DNA of 64,000 nucleotides from Squalus acanthias (Eukaryota), in the NCBI GenBank assembly GCA_030390025.1, contig CM059432.1, positions 77,748,001 through 77,812,000 of the forward strand. The letters are read 5' to 3'. Shown here in pieces: positions 152 through 47,389 of this stretch; within the stretch, counting starts at the first letter, position 1, and the number at the start of each line of letters is the position of its first letter. The position numbers and the translations under genes were made by a program. The notes under the pieces are model-generated. The model worked only from the letters and a program-made list of their open reading frames with translations, was not told the DNA's origin and made no database searches.

Positions 152-228
152 CCGAAACGTTAACTCGGTTTCTCTCTCCACGGATGCTGCCTGGCCTGCT
201 GAGTATTTCCAACAACTTTTGTTTTTAT
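152..228 (+). mobile_element. Penelope pLTR end fragment (3' half of the hammerhead only)
   Basis: GAAACGTTAACTC...CCACGGATGCTGCCTGG matches 25364-25440. Confidence 0.75.
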
Positions 229-12257: not shown

Positions 12258-12670
12258 AGAAATAAAAACAGAAAATGCTGGAAATACTCAGCAGGTCAGG
12301 CAGCATCTGTAGAAAGAGAAACAGAGTTAACGTTTCAGGTCGATGACCCTTCGTCAGATCTGGAAAAAGTTGGAGATGTAACAGGTTTTTAAGCAAGTGT
12401 AGGAACAGGGAAAGGGGGGAGGAGAGGAAAGAACAAAAGGGAAGGTCTGTGATAGGATTGAAGGCAGGAGCGATTAAGAGACAAAAGGGATGCTGGTGCA
12501 AGGCAAAAGGAGATGGTAATGGGACAAGTTAAGAAGCAAAAGATGAGTCTAGATGAAGTGTAAATGGCAATGGCAGAATCATCAACAGCTGCCATGTGGA
12601 AAAAAAATAGGGGCAGAGGTTATGGTCTGAAATTGTTGAACTCGATGTTGAGTCCAGAAGGCTGTAAAGT
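12258..12670 (-). mobile_element. Penelope 3' fragment (ORF end LQPSGLNIEFNNFRP* plus pLTR)
   Basis: Homologous to 25030-25440. Confidence 0.88.
12324..12361 (-). ncRNA. Minimal hammerhead ribozyme motif
   Basis: The minus strand reads CTGACGA-agggtc atc gacct-GAAACGTTAACT, with one mismatch in stem I. Confidence 0.65.
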
Positions 12671-20839: not shown

Positions 20840-21001
20840 CAATAGTGCAGAGTAAACAACTTGAGGATTTGGGTGATCTAGAAACAGGATCAATCCAGGC
20901 AGACATCCCTGATCCTGGACAATCGCTCGTCTGTTTAAGGGGTCAGATGCTAAATCTTGCAGCTGGTTTACTACTGCTAGTGCATCAGGCTCCCCACTCA
21001 T
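20840..21001 (-). CDS. ARMC1: ARMC1 first coding exon (54 codons; whole exon 21053-20840)
   Basis: Translates [54 protein letters not shown], matching the vertebrate ARMC1 N-terminus. Acceptor ttattttatttttacag precedes 21053; donor TTG|gtaagt follows 20840; phase 0. Confidence 0.96.
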
Positions 21002-21339
21002 TGTGCCACCATCCACTATGCCATATGTTTTAAGCAATTTTCTCAATAATGCACTGTAAAAATAAAATAAGCATGAATTAGACCATTAACAGGTTCAATA
21101 TTAATATTTGGTCAAATTTGACAGATCATTTATTTAAATCCCTTCAATAACCAATTAAATTCATACTTAAGCCATTAATGTAGGCAACATTCTGGTTGAT
21201 AATGAGGCACAGTTTTGCATGTTACTGTATATTTTCAAGTAAATGTCATTTGCAGTATCAGATACAAGTGCAATTTTGCACTTACTGTGCAAAGTACTAA
21301 ACCTAGGGTGAAGCAACAAGGTCTACACTGCAGGAAAAC

Positions 21340-21495: not shown

Positions 21496-21757
21496 GTGAT
21501 TCTAGGATCATATCCAAGGCCACTGGGGTTTATGATCTTCATGGAAAAATGGCTAGAACTGCAGCAAAGATCTGGGAATCCCATGTAATACAGAATTTGA
21601 TTTATTAATTCATTCACCATAAACCAATGGCCCTGATCATATTCTCCAGAAATAATAAAACTATAAAGATTACACACCACAAAACTCAACACATTGCAAC
21701 TACAATAAATTCACAAGTAACGAAAAAAATCTTTCCTGTCAAACATGCCTATTACTA

Positions 21758-21959
21758 TAGTCAAGATGTGGAGATGCAGGTGTTGGACTGGGGTGGACAA
21801 ATGTGAGAATTCGCACAACACCAGGTTATAGTCCAACAGCTTTATTTGAAATCACAAGCTTTCCCAGCGCTGCTCCTTCGTCAGGTCACCTGCCGAAAGC
21901 TTGTGATTTCAAATAAAGCTGTTGGACTAGAACCTGGTGTTGTGCGACTTCTCACATTT
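21758..21959. mobile_element. Miniature inverted Penelope-type pLTR remnant of a second family (65-bp hairpin)
   Basis: Arms 21799-21863 and 21895-21959 differ at 2 positions. The minus strand reads CTGACGA-aggagcagcgctgg-GAAAGCTT, a degenerate hammerhead. Outer duplication TATTACTA at 21750-21757 and 25449-25456. Confidence 0.7.
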
Positions 21960-22059
21960 ATTCGATAGCAAAATACTGCGGATGCTGGAAATCCGAAATA
22001 ACAACAGAAAACGCTGGAAAAACTCAGCAGACCAGGCAGCATCCGTGGAGAGAGAAAGA

Positions 22060-22098
22060 GAGTTAACGTTTCAGGTCGATGACCTTTCATCAGAACTG
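22060..22098 (-). ncRNA. Minimal hammerhead ribozyme motif (inverted-arm copy)
   Basis: Exact reverse complement of 25338-25376. Confidence 0.8.
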
Positions 22099-22801
22099 GG
22101 AAGAGCCGGAAATCAAATAGATTTAAGGCCAGGGTAAAGCTGGGAAAAGGGGGAGGGGATAAAGGAACAAAGGGGGAGATGAAGAGACATTAAGAGACAT
22201 TAAGAGATATGCAAGGCTAGAGGTGGTGTTAATGTGACAGATTAAGGCTGAATGAAGTGTGAAATCCACTGGCAGAATGAAGGACAGCTGCCAGCTTCTA
22301 GGAGGAAAAAAAAAAGGTGGGGGGGGGACAAATAAAAATAAAATATAAATGTGATTGGAGCTGAGGTTATGATCTAAAATTGTTGAACTCGATATTGAGC
22401 CCAGAGGGCTGTAGCGTGCCTAAACGAAAGATGAGGTGCTGTTCCTCGAGCTTACGCTGCGCTTCCGTGGAACAGTGTAATAGGCCGAGGACGGTGAGGT
22501 CAGAGTGGGAGTGAAGCGGTGAATTAAAGTGACAGGCCACCGGGAGCTCGGGGTCCCCCTTACGGACTGAACGGAGGTGTTCCGCAAAGCGGTCACCCAA
22601 TCTGCGTTTGGTCTCCCCAATGTAGAGGAGTCCACATCGTGAGCAGCGAATACAGTACACTAAATTGCAGGAAGTACAAGTAAATCGCTGTTTCACCTGG
22701 AAGGGGTGTTTGGGGCCCTGGACAGTGGGAAGAGGGGAGGTATAAGGGCATGTGTTGCATCTCCTGCGCGTGCACGGGAAGGTGCCGGGCGAAGGGGAAG
22801 G

Positions 22802-25080
22802 CTTCAACAACTCTTGGACACTAAAGCCCCTCCGGAACCTTCTTCCCCTTCACTTTCCTCTGACCCCCCTTCTCCCAATCTCACCCCCTGCCGCGTTTTC
22901 ACTATCCCCTCTGACCTTCCCCTCTCTGACTCCGAACGATCAGTCCTCAGCAAAGGCCTGAGCTTCATCCCCTTACGCCCCCATCTCAATGAATTTCGAG
23001 CTCGGCACGATGCTGAGCTCTTTTTCCGCCGCCTCCGTCTCCGTGCCCACTTCTCTGGCCAGGAGTCTTCCCCCCGCACGGCTGACCCTTTCTCCCGCTT
23101 TCAGAATTCTCATTCCACCTGGACCCCTCCCTCTGGCCTCTTACCCTCTCTTGATCTTTTCATTGCTAACTGCCGCCGTGACATCGGCCAGCTCAATTTC
23201 TCTGCTCCCCTCACTCACTCCAACCTACCTCCCTCTGAACTTGCAGCACTCCATTCTCTCTGATCCAACCCTGACATTGTCATTAAACCTGCTGACAAGG
23301 GTGGCGCTGTTGTTGTTTGGCGAACCGACCTCTACCTAGCGGAAGTTGAACGCCAACTCTCTGACACCTCCTCCTACCTCCACCTGGACCATGACCCCAC
23401 TACCGAACATCAAGCCACCGTGTCCAAGACTGTCACTGACCTCATCTCCTCTGGAGATCTTCCCCCCACGGCCGCCAACCTCATAGTTCCCCAACCCCGC
23501 ACAGCCCGCTTCTACCTCCTTCCCAAGATCCACAAACAGGACTGCCCCGGTAGACCCATCGTTTCAGCCTGTTCTTGCCCCACGGAACTTATCTCTTCCT
23601 ATCTCGACTCTATTTTTTCTCCCCTTGTCCAGTCTCTTCCCACCTACATCCGCGACTCTTCCGATGCCCTCCGCCATTTTAACAGTTTCCCGGCCCCAAC
23701 CGTCTCCTCTTCACTATGGACGTACAATCCCTCTACACCTCCATTCCCCACCAGGATGGCCTGAGGGCGCTCCGCTTCTTCCTTGAACAGAGGCCCAACC
23801 AGTCCCCATCCACCACCACCCTCCTCCGCCTGGCTGAACTTGTTCTCACATTGAACAACTTCTCCTTTGACTCTACCCATTTCCTCCAAATTAAAGGTGT
23901 TGCTATGAGTACCCGCATGGGTCCTAGCTATGCCTGCCTTTTCGTGGGATATGTGGAACACTCTTTGTTCCAGTCGTACTCGGGTCCCCTCCCTCACCTC
24001 TTTTTCCGGTACATTGATGACTGTATCGGTGCCGTCTCCTGCTCTCGCCCTGAACTAGAACATTTCATTCACTATGCTTCCAATTTCCACCCTTCCCTCA
24101 CCTTCACATGGTCCATCAATGACTCTTCCCTTCCCTTCCTCGACTTCTCCATCTCCATCTCTGGGGATAGGTTATTGACTAACATTCACTACAAGCCCAC
24201 TGACTCCCACAGCTACCTGGACTACACTTCCTCCCACCCCGCCTCCTGTAAGGACTCTATTCCATTCTCCCAGTTTCTCCGTCTCCGCCGCATCTGCTCT
24301 GATGATGCCACCTTCCATACCAGTGCTTCTGACATGTCTTCCTTTTTCCTCAACCGAGGATTCCCCTCTACCGTGGTCGACACGGCCCTCGACCGTGTCC
24401 GTTCTATCTCCCGCACTTCTGCCCTCACCCCTGCCCCTCCCTCCCGGAACCACGATAGGGTTCCCCTTGTCCTCACCTTTCACCTCACCAGCCTCCACAT
24501 TCAACGGATCATCCTCCGCCATTTCCGCCACCTCCAGCGTGATCCCACCACCAAACACATCTTCCCCTCACCTCCCCTTTCAGCATTCCGTAGGGACCGC
24601 TCCCTCCGCGACACCCTAGTCTACTCCTCTACCACCCCCAGCACCCCTTCCCCTTCGCCCGGCACCTTCCCGTGCACGCGCAGGAGATGCAACACATGCC
24701 CTTATACCTCCCCTCTTCCCACTGTCCAGGGCCCCAAACACCCCTTCCAGGTGAAACAGCGATTTACTTGTACTTCCTGCAATTTAGTGTACTGTATTCG
24801 CTGCTCACGATGTGGACTCCTCTACATTGGGGAGACCAAACGCAGATTGGGTGACCGCTTTGCGGAACACCTCCGTTCAGTCCGTAAGGGGGACCCCGAG
24901 CTCCCGGTGGCCTGTCACTTTAATTCACCGCTTCACTCCCACTCTGACCTCACCGTCCTCGGCCTATTACACTGTTCCACGGAAGCGCAGCGTAAGCTCG
25001 AGGAACAGCACCTCATCTTTCGTTTAGGCACTCTACAACCCTCTGGACTCAACATAGAGTTCAACAATTTCAGATCATAA
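22802..25080 (+). pseudogene. Penelope RT-GIY-YIG ORF, 5'-truncated with two lesions
   Basis: TGA at 23261-23263 (probable CGA>TGA; the frame continues as SNPDIVIKPADKGG) and one frameshift near 23685. Open from 23716 to 25080 (454 aa). Confidence 0.9.
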
Positions 25081-25337
25081 CCTCAGCTCCAATCACATTT
25101 ATATTTTATTTTTATTTGTCCCCCCCCCACCTTTTTTTTTCCTCCTAGAAGCTGGCAGCTGTCCTTCATTCTGCCAGTGGATTTCACACTTCATTCAGCC
25201 TTAATCTGTCACATTAACACCACCTCTAGCCTTGCATATCTCTTAATGTCTCTTCATCTCCCCCTTTGTTCCTTTATCCCCTCCCCCTTTTCCCAGCTTT
25301 ACCCTGGCCTTAAATCTATTTGATTTCCGGCTCTTCC

Positions 25338-25376
25338 CAGTTCTGATGAAAGGTCATCGACCTGAAACGTTAACTC
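25338..25376 (+). ncRNA. Minimal type I hammerhead ribozyme motif in the Penelope pLTR
   Basis: AGTT-CTGATGA-a-AGGTC atc GACCT-GAAA-CGTT-AACT: conserved core boxes, a 5-bp stem II, stem I AGTT/AACT, and palindromic ACGT in place of stem III. Confidence 0.8.
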
Positions 25377-25784
25377 TCTTTCTCTCTCCACGGATGCTGC
25401 CTGGTCTGCTGAGTTTTTCCAGCGTTTTCTGTTGTTATTTCTCACATTTATTACTAGGTGAAAAACACCATTTAATCAAGACCTAATGAAGAGACATGAA
25501 ACTCTCCAAACATTTCTCGTGCATTTTCACTGGACATGTTGAGGGTCTTGTTTTCTTCTAACTTTCAGAAATAACAAATCGAAGGACACATACTTAGCCT
25601 GTTGTCTAGAATAAACGGAGTTTAAACCAGATGTAAACACTAATGCAATGCGTGGGGTGAAGGGCCCGAGTCAAGCCTGACGATGTCTCAATACTCGGGA
25701 CGCAGCCCTCCGCCCGCAGGCCGCTTTATTGCAGAACTCCCCGTTCATCCCAGTTAACCTCCAACAGTCACGGCCTCGTCATAC

Positions 25785-25975
25785 CTTTAACACCCGACGC
25801 TTGTTTAACTCCTCGATTATAACCTGCGTTTACTGCTCCTCTGATCATTCACAGCCGCCAACAAATCCCATCCGCTTTAACCAGTCCAGTGACTCAATCA
25901 AACACTAACGATACCGATGCACTCCACAACTCCGCTCGCGTTCACCGAGCTTGCCCAGCGGCCCGGCCCTGCATA
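25785..25975 (-). other. ARMC1: Probable non-coding first exon of ARMC1 (start approximate)
   Basis: CpG-rich segment with a minus-strand donor AAAG|gtatga after 25785. The AUG exon has an acceptor, so an upstream exon must exist. Confidence 0.45.
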
Positions 25976-26259
25976 CTCCACTCCCTCAATCCCAGTTATG
26001 CCATTGGTTCATTTCCTCTCAAGCATTCCTGAGAGAATAGCCTATCGCACATCATGTTATTGCGTATAATTATCTGGCTCACCAGATTTTTTTTAAATAA
26101 AGGGAATCATATTAACTTAAACTGTATTAATTTTGAAAAATTGACTATAAAGTGTGTTTTAATGGTGTTGAATATATCCAGTCTGTGTTGAGAGGTATCT
26201 GAGTGTGCCGTGGGCGGTTGGGGCCGTGTCTGATTGGTGGGTTTGCCGGGCATGCGCCG

Positions 26260-26322
26260 GAAGCTGCTGTCGCGGGTCGCTCTGTGCCGGTTTGTGAGGT
26301 GCTCGAGCGCTCCAACTCCCAG
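26260..26322 (+). other. MTFR1: Probable non-coding first exon of MTFR1 (start approximate)
   Basis: Strong donor CCAG|gtgaga after 26322, just downstream of the CCAAT/NRF1/ETS cluster. Confidence 0.6.
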
Positions 26323-27909
26323 GTGAGAAACAGCGAGACCGGACCGGACCGGTGGCCACGGCTACGACTGACGGTGCCGGGTGTCCTGACTCGGGACAAA
26401 AAGAACGGGGGTTTATATGGAGCCCTTTTATCGAGAGTTCTGCTAATAACGAGGGAGAGCCCGCCCTGGTCGGTGGCTGTTTCGGTGCTAGCGGCCCCTC
26501 TCTCGGCCCGGGACGCGGGGCAGTGCTCTGCCTCCCTCTCTAATTATACAGTAACTGTTATTCATACGGCTGGCGGCAGGTCCAGGCTTCGTCTTGGCTG
26601 CTCCTGACACTGTCTGCAGGCCGGCGCTCCAGCTATTTGTCTGACCCGATGATTCATTCAATCTTACAAAGTTATTCCTTTTGCACATTTGGTTCTTGGT
26701 GATGGGAAAGGGTGGCACACAGTTATTTCTGTACGTTATGTAATTTTCTTTTTGCAGCTGGGCCGATCTATACATATGGTGAATATAATCTGCCAATTAC
26801 TAGTTAATATATCATAGGAATTGATCGGTCACATTATTTGGAAATGCAGGGTATCCCGTGTCTGCAAGGTTGTCAAAATATTTAGATATGTATTGGAAAA
26901 AGTGGCTTTTCTAAAATTGAAATTTGATTCCCGATTGCATTCAACAAACGTTATTGTAAGCGTCGATGTCGGCACAAATTGACATCTAGGTATTTACTAA
27001 TCCAACATTTGATGAAACGAGCATGATGGTCGTATTTAGTAAGGTGGAAAATAGGTGCTGCAAGTATCTTAAATGTTAAGCAGTGCATATTTCTTCGTTG
27101 GTCTGAGGATTTTTAATGAGTGAATTGATGTTCTATCTATACATTGGTAAAAACCATACATCTGTGTTCACTTGTCTCCAAACTTTACTCCCATTTGTCA
27201 TGTTCACATTTATAATGGAAATTGCCTATGTAAACCTGAAACTCCTAGAGGCACATTGATTGGGTTGAGTTGCTCAGTGATTTCCCCCCTCATATTTGCC
27301 TAATTAAAATCGGGCAGTTGCATAATGGAAAATTGTGGCATGAACTGCATCATCAGACAGGCTTGCTGTTTCCAAAATTTAAGAATCCTCTGTTAATGGC
27401 ATTTACTGCATTTGAACCTTATGTAATTTTTTTGTATAATTTTTCTATGTTACTGATTACTTTGTGAGGAGATTAATAGTTATTATGCATACTAAAACAG
27501 CTGAATTAAGGTTCCAATGTAAAGGAGGAGAGAGATGTGCAACATAACTTTCTAAATTGGTTATGGCCCAAAGAAACTAAATGCCATGGTTTGTGACTGG
27601 TTGTTAAGGCAATTGATTACATTATACTTTTTTTTTGTTTAGATTGCACATCTCAAGATACACTCAATGATGTGTGTGATATTGCTTAGTTCTTTGCATT
27701 CTGGGTGATCTGCACATATTCTGTTACAAATTCTCTCAGAGCAACTGTAACTAGCCCTAACTATGACAATTTCTTGTGCATCTAAGCTAGAACTGGTAAA
27801 TTCTGAGCACTACACAGTGTTAACAAGGTACAAATGCATAAAAACAGGTAGCATATGTTGAGAAATTTGAGTTTTAAATGCTTTTTAAAAATTTTATAAA
27901 GAAAAGTCA

Positions 27910-46122: not shown

Positions 46123-46364
46123 ATCCGAGATTCGTCCTGAATGTGCTGACCTCTCTGAGCATCAGGTTCCATCTTTTGGAAGACCCATCAGCAGGCAAGC
46201 TTCCTTGCCAAATTTGAGGAATTGTAAAACGGAACCTGCAACTCCCACAATTGCCAGTGATGCAGCACTGGAAAAAATCAACGTATTGGAGAATGAACTT
46301 GCTAAGTTACGGGAACAGATTGCCATGATTGTGACTATACAAGAACAAAGCAGTCTCTTGGCAG
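46123..46364 (+). CDS. MTFR1: MTFR1 coding exon 4 (242 nt)
   Basis: Translates SEIRPEC...SRQASLPNL...AALEKINVLENELAKLREQIAMIVTIQEQ (coiled coil). Acceptor ctcacag; donor G|gtatat; phases fit. Confidence 0.93.
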
Positions 46365-47389
46365 GTATATACAATATTTATGTTTAGATGGTTGCCATTT
46401 AAATTCTTGTAGGCTTCATTGTTTCAAACTCTTCTATTGATCAGGCTGGCGCTGTTGCTGAATTCTTTGCTCTCTGAGTGACCATAAACAATGAGTGACT
46501 CAATCTACTTGTACCTACTTATGCGATGGGTAGTGACAGCCCTGATATTGATCATATTGCAAGTTCCGGGGATGTAAGTCAGCTTGCTGGGGCAGCCTTT
46601 GAGAATTATTTGCTGTCATTCCTATGTTGAACTGCTTTGTTATCTATGCAGTACAAAGACAGATTTGCACATGCGTAATCCATTATCATGTTGTTCAGCA
46701 ACCTCTCATCGCTTCACAAACAATGAATTACTTTGCGCTGTTGTTATTTCGGCAAATATGGTAGCATTTGTGCATAGAAAGATTACACAAACAACAATGA
46801 GGTGGATTCCCAATGAATCTGCTCTTGGTTTGAGGGAGGAATGTTGGTTAGGACATCTTGTAACCTGGGATCGTTGGCACCCATTTGAACCATTGAAAGA
46901 GGCAGATGGGACCTTGTTGTTTGTCTCATGTAAGAAGTGTCAGCTATCTTTCTACCCCTCGGTATCTGCTCTTTCTGGTCCCTTGCCAATGCCTTCCTTA
47001 TAATTGTGTGAATCTTCCTTTTCTGTTCCACTGGTGTATTTGTTAGCTCCCTAAATTTAAAAAAAACGGACTTCCTTTCTCCTTGATACCTGAAGCAACA
47101 AGTAGTAGAACAGAGTCATGGCAAACAAGGCATAAAGTACAATCCAGCAGAGCAACACAGTCCTGATGGAAGAGGAGTTCAGAAGTTGGAAAAATTTAAT
47201 ATGAGCAGAGATCCAGCCTTTGTAAAGAGCATCGTAAAAACATGGAATAAGTGGAGTTGGGGGATGAGAAATGTGCTCTGTACAGATACCTTTAAACTTG
47301 TAGCTTGAAGTTGAAAATTGAGCTAAAATGCACCCACTATTGGGGGCAGGGGATCTTGAGCAGTGTCAGAGGGGATACTGCAAAAACAA

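Follow-up and report, generated by a model that had tools for sequence, protein, structure and literature searches.

Intron 1 of ARMC1 in Squalus acanthias contains a 5'-truncated, frameshifted Penelope-like copy with inverted arms, located in a 64,000-nucleotide stretch of DNA (assembly GCA_030390025.1, contig CM059432.1, positions 77,748,001 to 77,812,000 of the forward strand; hereafter the window, in whose numbering all positions are given). The copy is likely a Neptune-clade member, was likely inserted once its host lineage had split from that of a sampled relative, and is likely spliced out harmlessly; this combined reading is given a probability of about 0.82. The layout of the copy is already known for the Penelope group, and its point of mechanistic value is a short patch of synonymous differences between the arms.

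Structure and affinities of the element

Pairwise alignment reproduces the inverted arms proposed in a first-pass annotation of this DNA, 807 nt on the left and 796 nt on the right (Table 1), with 790 identities and six substitutions; the only gaps are one of 1 nt in a homopolymer and one of 10 nt. Being 97.9% alike and 1844 nt apart, the arms form the top inverted pair of the window by length and similarity; the next best of the 15 pairs of at least 200 nt listed reaches 86.1%. As the annotation had described, each arm carries the GIY-YIG end (by tblastn), the 3' untranslated region (UTR) and a hammerhead motif; the motif reads CTGATGA..GAAA. Four sequencing runs of the 24 listed were compared as contigs over 22740-26900: X1 and X5, two samples of the host species (organism A) from two studies; X6, from a relative (organism B); and X18. 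The 32-nt tail is confined to the left arm, as had been noted, and family contigs extend beyond 25441 with a tail-like consensus (loose ends: 98 in X1, 73 in X5, 133 in X6; agreement 0.41-0.43). The flanks have 14 letters in common (21949-21962 and 25439-25452), three of which also fit the element end while 11 lie outside the arm. The target duplication is therefore of 11-14 nt and most likely of 12 nt, the length first proposed, because tail-less family contigs stop at 25440 (84 contigs in X6). Family ends both with and without the tail occur at 25441/25440. The arm anatomy, tail, duplication and hammerhead motifs are real.

The element encodes reverse transcriptase (RT) and, C-terminally, a GIY-YIG endonuclease (EN) in one open reading frame (ORF), which is broken in the ARMC1 copy. 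Its homologues combine RVT_1 and GIY-YIG, and its own GIY-YIG match (E 4.6e-4) lies just under the Pfam cut-off. The protein has the DKG motif in the form ADKGG, the CX2-5CxxC linker before the endonuclease in the form CX4CxxC, and a CCHH motif whose two Cys lie between the GIY and YIG parts and whose residues (C374, C377, H396 and H412 of the element protein, P0001) are almost invariant in homologues. Together with the inverted terminal repeat, one-sided tail, target duplication and hammerhead motif, the single ORF and the DKG and CCHH motifs are those of endonuclease-bearing (EN+) Penelope-like elements and bear out the first classification of the copy. Judged by its reading frame, the copy is dead because of its 5' truncation, a stop codon at 23261-23263, a frameshift near 23683, where family contigs are 7 nt longer, and a G-to-S change in the RT AMGT motif. 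The count of 'only two lesions' made at first pass was thus too low. The ORF opens at the inversion junction (22802) and has no start codon there, 12 X1 contigs run on upstream of 22801, and five of nine aligned homologues have ~60 extra N-terminal residues. In the AMGT motif, 102 of 120 homologues have G, 16 are unmatched by the pattern, one has D and one has S. The intact ORF preceded by a direct pseudo-long terminal repeat (pLTR; a partial tandem) that marks an autonomous copy is absent.

Assignment to Neptune was originally argued from the Cys linker. The clade holds up as likely; the argument does not, as Nematis and Naiad have the linker as well as Neptune (PMC8557442), which leaves it non-diagnostic. 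The assignment is made because of likeness to Neptune1_Ap, which by eye has the same DKGG-VVWRTDLY-RQLSD-PKIHK block and the same long spacer between CxxC and the next Cys (PMC8557442). Homologues P0027 and P0052, 51% identical to P0001 and 48-49% to the element's N-terminal frame, are near-identical by eye to the Neptune1_Ap row of the supplementary alignment of that paper, and the element protein also matches its Neptune1_Nv row by eye. The short spacer after CxxC and the SDK.GEF..YKTHKF block of Nematis are absent from the element, from which the three Nematis rows of the same supplement diverge in the DKG block and EN spacer. A protein search gave 822 matches; among the 120 listed, the closest named ones are chondrichthyan (59-72%), followed by coral, snail and sea-urchin proteins (~49-53%). 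Among the same 120, no named bony-fish, amphibian or reptile protein is seen. This pattern might point to an ancient horizontal transfer out of marine invertebrates, or simply to annotation bias. A quick unrooted tree restricted to in-group rows (29 chosen of 121) places the element protein in a chondrichthyan clade (SH-aLRT 99). The element thus differs from Neptune references in forming its own chondrichthyan subgroup, and in a target that at this single site is AT-rich rather than the (TA)n microsatellite towards which Neptune elements are hypothesized to be biased. Neptune elements have been reported from five vertebrate classes in a retrozyme preprint (10.64898/2026.07.22.740005). A metagenome scan gave 119 pattern matches with one relative (L001; 56% over 74 residues), which was not used. 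A literature search with limited coverage of subscription journals and repeat databases found nothing on this shark Penelope family, which may already be named in repeat databases.

The combination of inverted truncated copy, one-sided tail, target duplication and hammerhead is the published Penelope layout (PMC8557442; PMC3846280). Canonical EN+ elements (Craig et al. 2021, PMC8557442; Arkhipova et al. 2013, PMC3846280) likewise have a single ORF with RT and C-terminal GIY-YIG, 5' truncation, an inverted repeat from a truncated copy, a 30-40-bp tail at one end, a short target duplication of variable length and a hammerhead near the 3' end. Unlike them, the ARMC1 copy is without an upstream direct pLTR, its inverted arm joining the truncated body directly. 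PAc of Anolis carolinensis (Frangieh et al. 2024, PMC11167929) resembles the copy in having two 3' end points a tail apart, an AT-rich ATT target and a hammerhead in the terminal repeat. However, PAc is a Poseidon element without a Cys linker, intact and tandem, whereas the ARMC1 copy is dead and inverted.

Table 1. Features of the ARMC1 intron 1 element and its surroundings (window positions)
Feature	Positions	Strand	Basis and remarks
Older fold-back element, 195 nt: 34-nt one-sided extension and two arms (63/65 nt alike), degenerate hammerhead core	21765..21959	.	Alignment, motif scan
Left target-site duplication	21951..21962	+	Flank comparison, family ends
Tail, 3' extension of element end	21963..21994	-	Left arm only; similar consensus in family contigs behind 25441
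Left arm: 3'-most 0.8 kb of the element in inverted, 5'-truncated form, with Cys linker, GIY-YIG end, 3' UTR and hammerhead motif	21995..22801	-	Alignment; 160-aa frame 22367-22849; element-sense on ARMC1 pre-mRNA strand
Minimal type I hammerhead motif, left arm	22061..22097	-	Motif scan, core at 22093
Patch, left-arm side	22376..22415	-	Arm alignment
Head-to-head inversion junction, 1-nt microhomology; also 5' truncation point of main body	22801..22802	.	Alignment; X1 loose ends before 22801
5'-truncated, broken RT and GIY-YIG ORF with DKG, YIDD, CX4CxxC, CCHH and GIY-YIG motifs	22802..25080	+	Frames, homologue alignment, motif counts
Right arm: 3' end of main body, tail-less	24646..25441	+	Alignment
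Patch, right-arm side	25032..25071	+	Arm alignment
Minimal type I hammerhead motif, right arm	25339..25375	+	Motif scan, core at 25343; antisense to ARMC1
Right target-site duplication	25441..25452	+	Flank comparison, family ends
ARMC1 exon 2; coding starts here, ATG at 21001	20841..21053	-	Frame and protein matches
ARMC1 non-coding exon 1; donor 25785/25784	25785..25987	-	X18 contig; extent from one probable RNA contig

The synonymous patch and the route of insertion

All six substitutions between the arms are third-position and synonymous (chance ~1e-4), and all fall within 40 of the 796 nt of the right arm (chance ~1e-6), while the rest of the arms shows 0 substitutions in 756 nt. A diverged second copy in the window (12610-12670) has the right-arm letter at four of the six patch sites and the left-arm letter at two; because it mixes the letters of both, each arm carries alleles that also occur in other family members. 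The six differences separate lineages that were under selection and did not arise by decay at this site. Dating of the insertion by these substitutions was rejected, since clustered and synonymous changes provide no clock. The end of the patch coincides with the end of the ORF and with a drop in cross-family depth (bin 25103-25241), in keeping with a donor from a different subfamily. That one arm was later converted by another family copy has nearly an even chance of being the source of the patch, and that the arms were copied at insertion from two closely related family templates, one of them bearing the patch, a somewhat smaller one; assembly or other causes are decidedly unlikely. It is proposed, tentatively and at odds well short of even, that a single insertion event copied the arms by reverse transcription from two different RNA templates, with a tailed and a tail-less start, nicks on opposite strands and an enzyme dimer, the patch being the fingerprint of that event. 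No paper on two-template Penelope arms was found in a literature search with limited coverage of subscription journals, and no counterpart of the synonymous arm patch was met in the published passages on canonical Penelope-like elements (PMC8557442; PMC3846280).

For the insertion itself we infer two starts. The GIY-YIG endonuclease of the family would nick both strands of the AT-rich site ~12 nt apart, and each free end would prime reverse transcription inside the element RNA. One cDNA would start tail-less and extend for 2.64 kb, stopping at 22802; the other would start at the tail and extend for 0.84 kb, stopping at the 24646 position. The two cDNAs would then be joined head to head over the 1 nt of microhomology. 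In vitro, PAc cuts a nick in each strand and extends both, favours AT-rich sites containing 5'-ATT-3', and uses two internal RT starts whose spacing equals the tail (PMC11167929).

An alternative that concerns the route only is that the left arm arose by fold-back of a single cDNA, through self-priming as proposed for Adineta Penelopes, with the patch added by later conversion. Both arms have C at 24677, where 82-100% of the family depth compared has A, which would derive their 5' parts from one source; moreover, a 4-bp hairpin (GAAG-G-CTTC) lies at the inversion junction, and published palindromes at such junctions have been taken as signs of self-priming (PMC3846280). However, those palindromes measure 18-38 nt (PMC3846280), the microhomology here is just 1 nt, and a tail on the left arm only would need extra trimming if that arm was copied from a tail-less cDNA, so that fold-back is considered unlikely. 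It is far less probable still that the inverted structure is an assembly artefact of collapsed or mis-joined family reads. Such structures trouble assemblies (PMC8557442), the family is extremely repetitive, and among the contigs listed for 22740-26900 none spans the inversion junction of the ARMC1 locus (22801/22802). Yet a genuine family tail and a target duplication that matches are found at the left end, a mirrored read would not be expected to give arms set apart by one coherent synonymous patch and two indels, and the right junction appears in two samples.

Age, abundance and the host gene

Presence of the insertion in the host species is supported at its right junction, where X1 and X5 each have one contig running from 25419, within the arm, into unique flank. 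By their letters these contigs match a filled rather than an empty site; an empty allele would be expected to break them at the target duplication, and neither breaks. They differ from the window at 4/1482 (X1) and 5/1380 (X5) flank letters, and three flank haplotypes thus appear to carry the insertion. For the orthologous X6 contig, alignment starts no earlier than 25458 and shows 67 differences over 1443 letters (4.6%), with 298 unmatched letters before, which is most simply read as an empty site in organism B. Insertion after the split from the lineage of organism B is accordingly likely. If the arms were not homogenized, the 0/756 count bounds their divergence at 0.40% (95%), ~9% of the distance to organism B; at the epaulette shark mutation rate of 7e-10 per base per generation (PMC10587355), this bound corresponds to an age of up to ~2.8 million generations. 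The first-pass description of the insertion as recent stands in the relative sense that the site appears unfilled in organism B, and the insertion is young only in that sense, being up to that age and apparently carried by three haplotypes.

The family is very abundant and not species-specific, with 80,003 matching contigs in X1 and 117,546 in X6 and a summed contig depth that is ~1e5 to 5e6 over the element but 8-58 over the flank, values that do not translate into copy number. Joints of inversion type also occur elsewhere in the family (22949/24706 in X1, depth 324; 22801/25340 in X5, depth 90; 24382/25404 in X6, depth 403). Some are far above single-copy depth (10-35), as if inverted forms had been amplified in turn, and one breaks next to 24646, as in the ARMC1 copy.

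The host gene is identified by a minus-strand frame (21001-20843) matching ARMC1 at 91-98% (among 120 listed of 451 matches) and by further minus-strand ARMC1 exons at 7601-7443, 6876-6679 and 1960-1841. Intron 1 spans 4731 nt between a GT donor (25784) and an AG acceptor (21054), 73.5% of it element, and the element lies 343 nt from the exon 1 donor, in line with the ~350 bp of the first-pass annotation. In X18, a 2044-nt contig matches 25785-25987 only and departs from the genomic sequence precisely at the exon 1 donor; it has a depth of 123.3 compared with 2.6 for an intron contig (~47-fold), contig depth being a poor measure. This indicates probable normal use of the donor in one probable RNA sample. 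A short GC-rich repeat in exon 1 (25945-25968) is longer than in the window by 5 letters in X1, X5 and X6 and by 10 in X18. On the plus strand, an exon of the MTFR family of mitochondrial fission regulators (46220-46384; PF05308, E 1e-12) is likely that of MTFR1, running away from the ARMC1 promoter, and would fit a head-to-head ARMC1/MTFR1 arrangement.

By its geometry, the intron would allow the arms to pair in ARMC1 pre-mRNA. The first-pass annotation expected ~800 bp of double-stranded RNA (dsRNA) in this pre-mRNA as a substrate for ADAR, Dicer or altered splicing. In a rival reading, such dsRNA is edited or diced, and splicing, termination or a promoter shared by ARMC1 and MTFR1 is altered. 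The similarity and spacing of the arms within intron 1 and the MTFR-family exon on the opposite strand speak for such an effect, as do the enlargement of the intron and the processing signals considered below. Against this, the exon 1 contig leaves the genome at the donor and far exceeds the intron contig in depth, intron 2 already holds a 724-nt inverted pair (83.6%; 10187-10904/19562-20273), and any small RNA could come from elsewhere, given that the family is far deeper than ARMC1 in X18 and that other strand-change joints exist. Some editing by ADAR is expected of such a hairpin anyway and is in itself no sign of function; counts of A>G/T>C differences are 11/22 in X18 and 9/25 in X1, from contigs that cannot show editing, strand or level. 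A literature search with limited coverage of subscription journals gave no title on A-to-I editing of inverted Penelope repeats in introns. A host effect is thus quite improbable, and the element is likely spliced out without important effect as a harmless passenger.

The reading of a Neptune-like, post-split and harmless insertion nonetheless has several points against it. The junction contigs of X1 and X5 include 23 letters of arm, under the 31-letter bridging rule, and among the contigs listed for 22740-26900 no row spans the left junction, as none spans the inversion junction. Contigs drop variants and show presence rather than absence of the insertion, hence they permit no statement on fixation, and the empty site of organism B is read from the extent of its alignment. 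Zero arm substitutions fit slightly uneasily with the 0.27-0.36% among carrier haplotypes (P ~0.07-0.10). The clade call draws on by-eye alignment rows and identity values rather than on a tree with named Neptune and Nematis references, and the chemistry of PAc, from Poseidon, is transferred to a Neptune-like element by inference. On the host side, X18 is one sample, RNA by guess; that animal may lack the insertion, and 1831 letters of its exon 1 contig are unmatched. The insertion has enlarged intron 1 from ~1.24 to 4.73 kb close to the promoter, the ARMC1 strand of the element has nine donor-like and two acceptor-like sites as well as AATAAA motifs, and a quantitative effect is conceivable for an element this near to the donor at a likely bidirectional promoter.

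Hammerhead motifs and neighbouring repeats

A motif scan of the window recovered three hammerhead sites with core and stem, one per arm and a third in the older copy, all in ends of this family. The assignment is a by-eye match to the published minimal descriptor; Rfam gave no match at gathering score in the window and 11 at E<=10 in 21700-22300, none of them a hammerhead, and the monomer fold is no better than shuffles (z -0.92). As in minimal hammerheads of Penelope repeats, there is a conserved core, a 4-bp helix I, a bulged base preceding the 5-bp helix II, no proper helix III and a palindromic AACGUU. In contrast to those motifs, the closing pair of helix II is, by the numbering used here, A-U instead of the highly conserved G-C, and the two ARMC1 motifs lie on opposite strands, therefore forming no cis dimer. 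Minimal hammerheads of Penelope repeats show no cleavage as monomers and weak cleavage as dimers (PMC4209133), and the PAc motif required protein (PMC11167929). Only the left motif is on the sense strand of ARMC1 pre-mRNA, where it would be buried by pairing with the right arm and is predicted to be inactive as a monomer, making hammerhead cleavage of the ARMC1 transcript unlikely. Family contigs often begin at 25339-25340 (145 in X5, 94 in X6), the 5' strand of helix I, with unrelated AT-rich flanks, and end at 25440-25441. This suggests either a very abundant element of ~100 nt comprising hammerhead and 3' end, or a pronounced 5' truncation point distinct from the cleavage site.

The large element was inserted at the very end of the older 195-nt fold-back (Table 1), whose last 9 nt are included in the target duplication; a single instance is no proof of targeting. 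A Penelope nested within another has been described, namely Pen2a in Pen3 (PMC3846280). The 195-nt element has a palindromic centre (21882-21892) and a possible 7-nt target duplication of its own (21751-21757 and 25450-25456), and from its sequence is likely a miniature of another Penelope-like family, in appearance two of that family's hammerhead-bearing 3' ends joined head to head. Rfam matches to microRNA precursors at 21807-21947 were rejected, as they are below gathering score and reflect hairpin shape. Older 3' fragments of related subfamilies lie at 12259-12670 (minus strand) and 154-228 (plus strand); the former begins at the equivalent of 25030, at the start of the patch, and its hammerhead is closed by a G-U pair. 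A long inverted pair at 32588-33399/40097-40923 (86.1%) and the intron 2 pair are presumably long interspersed nuclear elements (LINEs) of CR1 type, by their RT-like 3' ends.

As one dead copy of a high-copy family with a published layout, this single locus matters little. A proven effect on ARMC1 or MTFR1, of which none is seen here, would raise its importance, and the insertion is usable as a presence/absence marker between the host species and its relative. The arm patch has wider bearing. It makes arm-to-arm divergence unsafe as a naive date for Penelope insertions, and counts of such patches across the family would bear on the origin of inverted Penelope ends, which in vitro work on PAc leaves open. 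If the two-template reading is true and general, inverted Penelope ends would be products of two-template twin priming, not fold-backs, and this huge shark family would offer thousands of natural test cases for an unsettled step of Penelope transposition.

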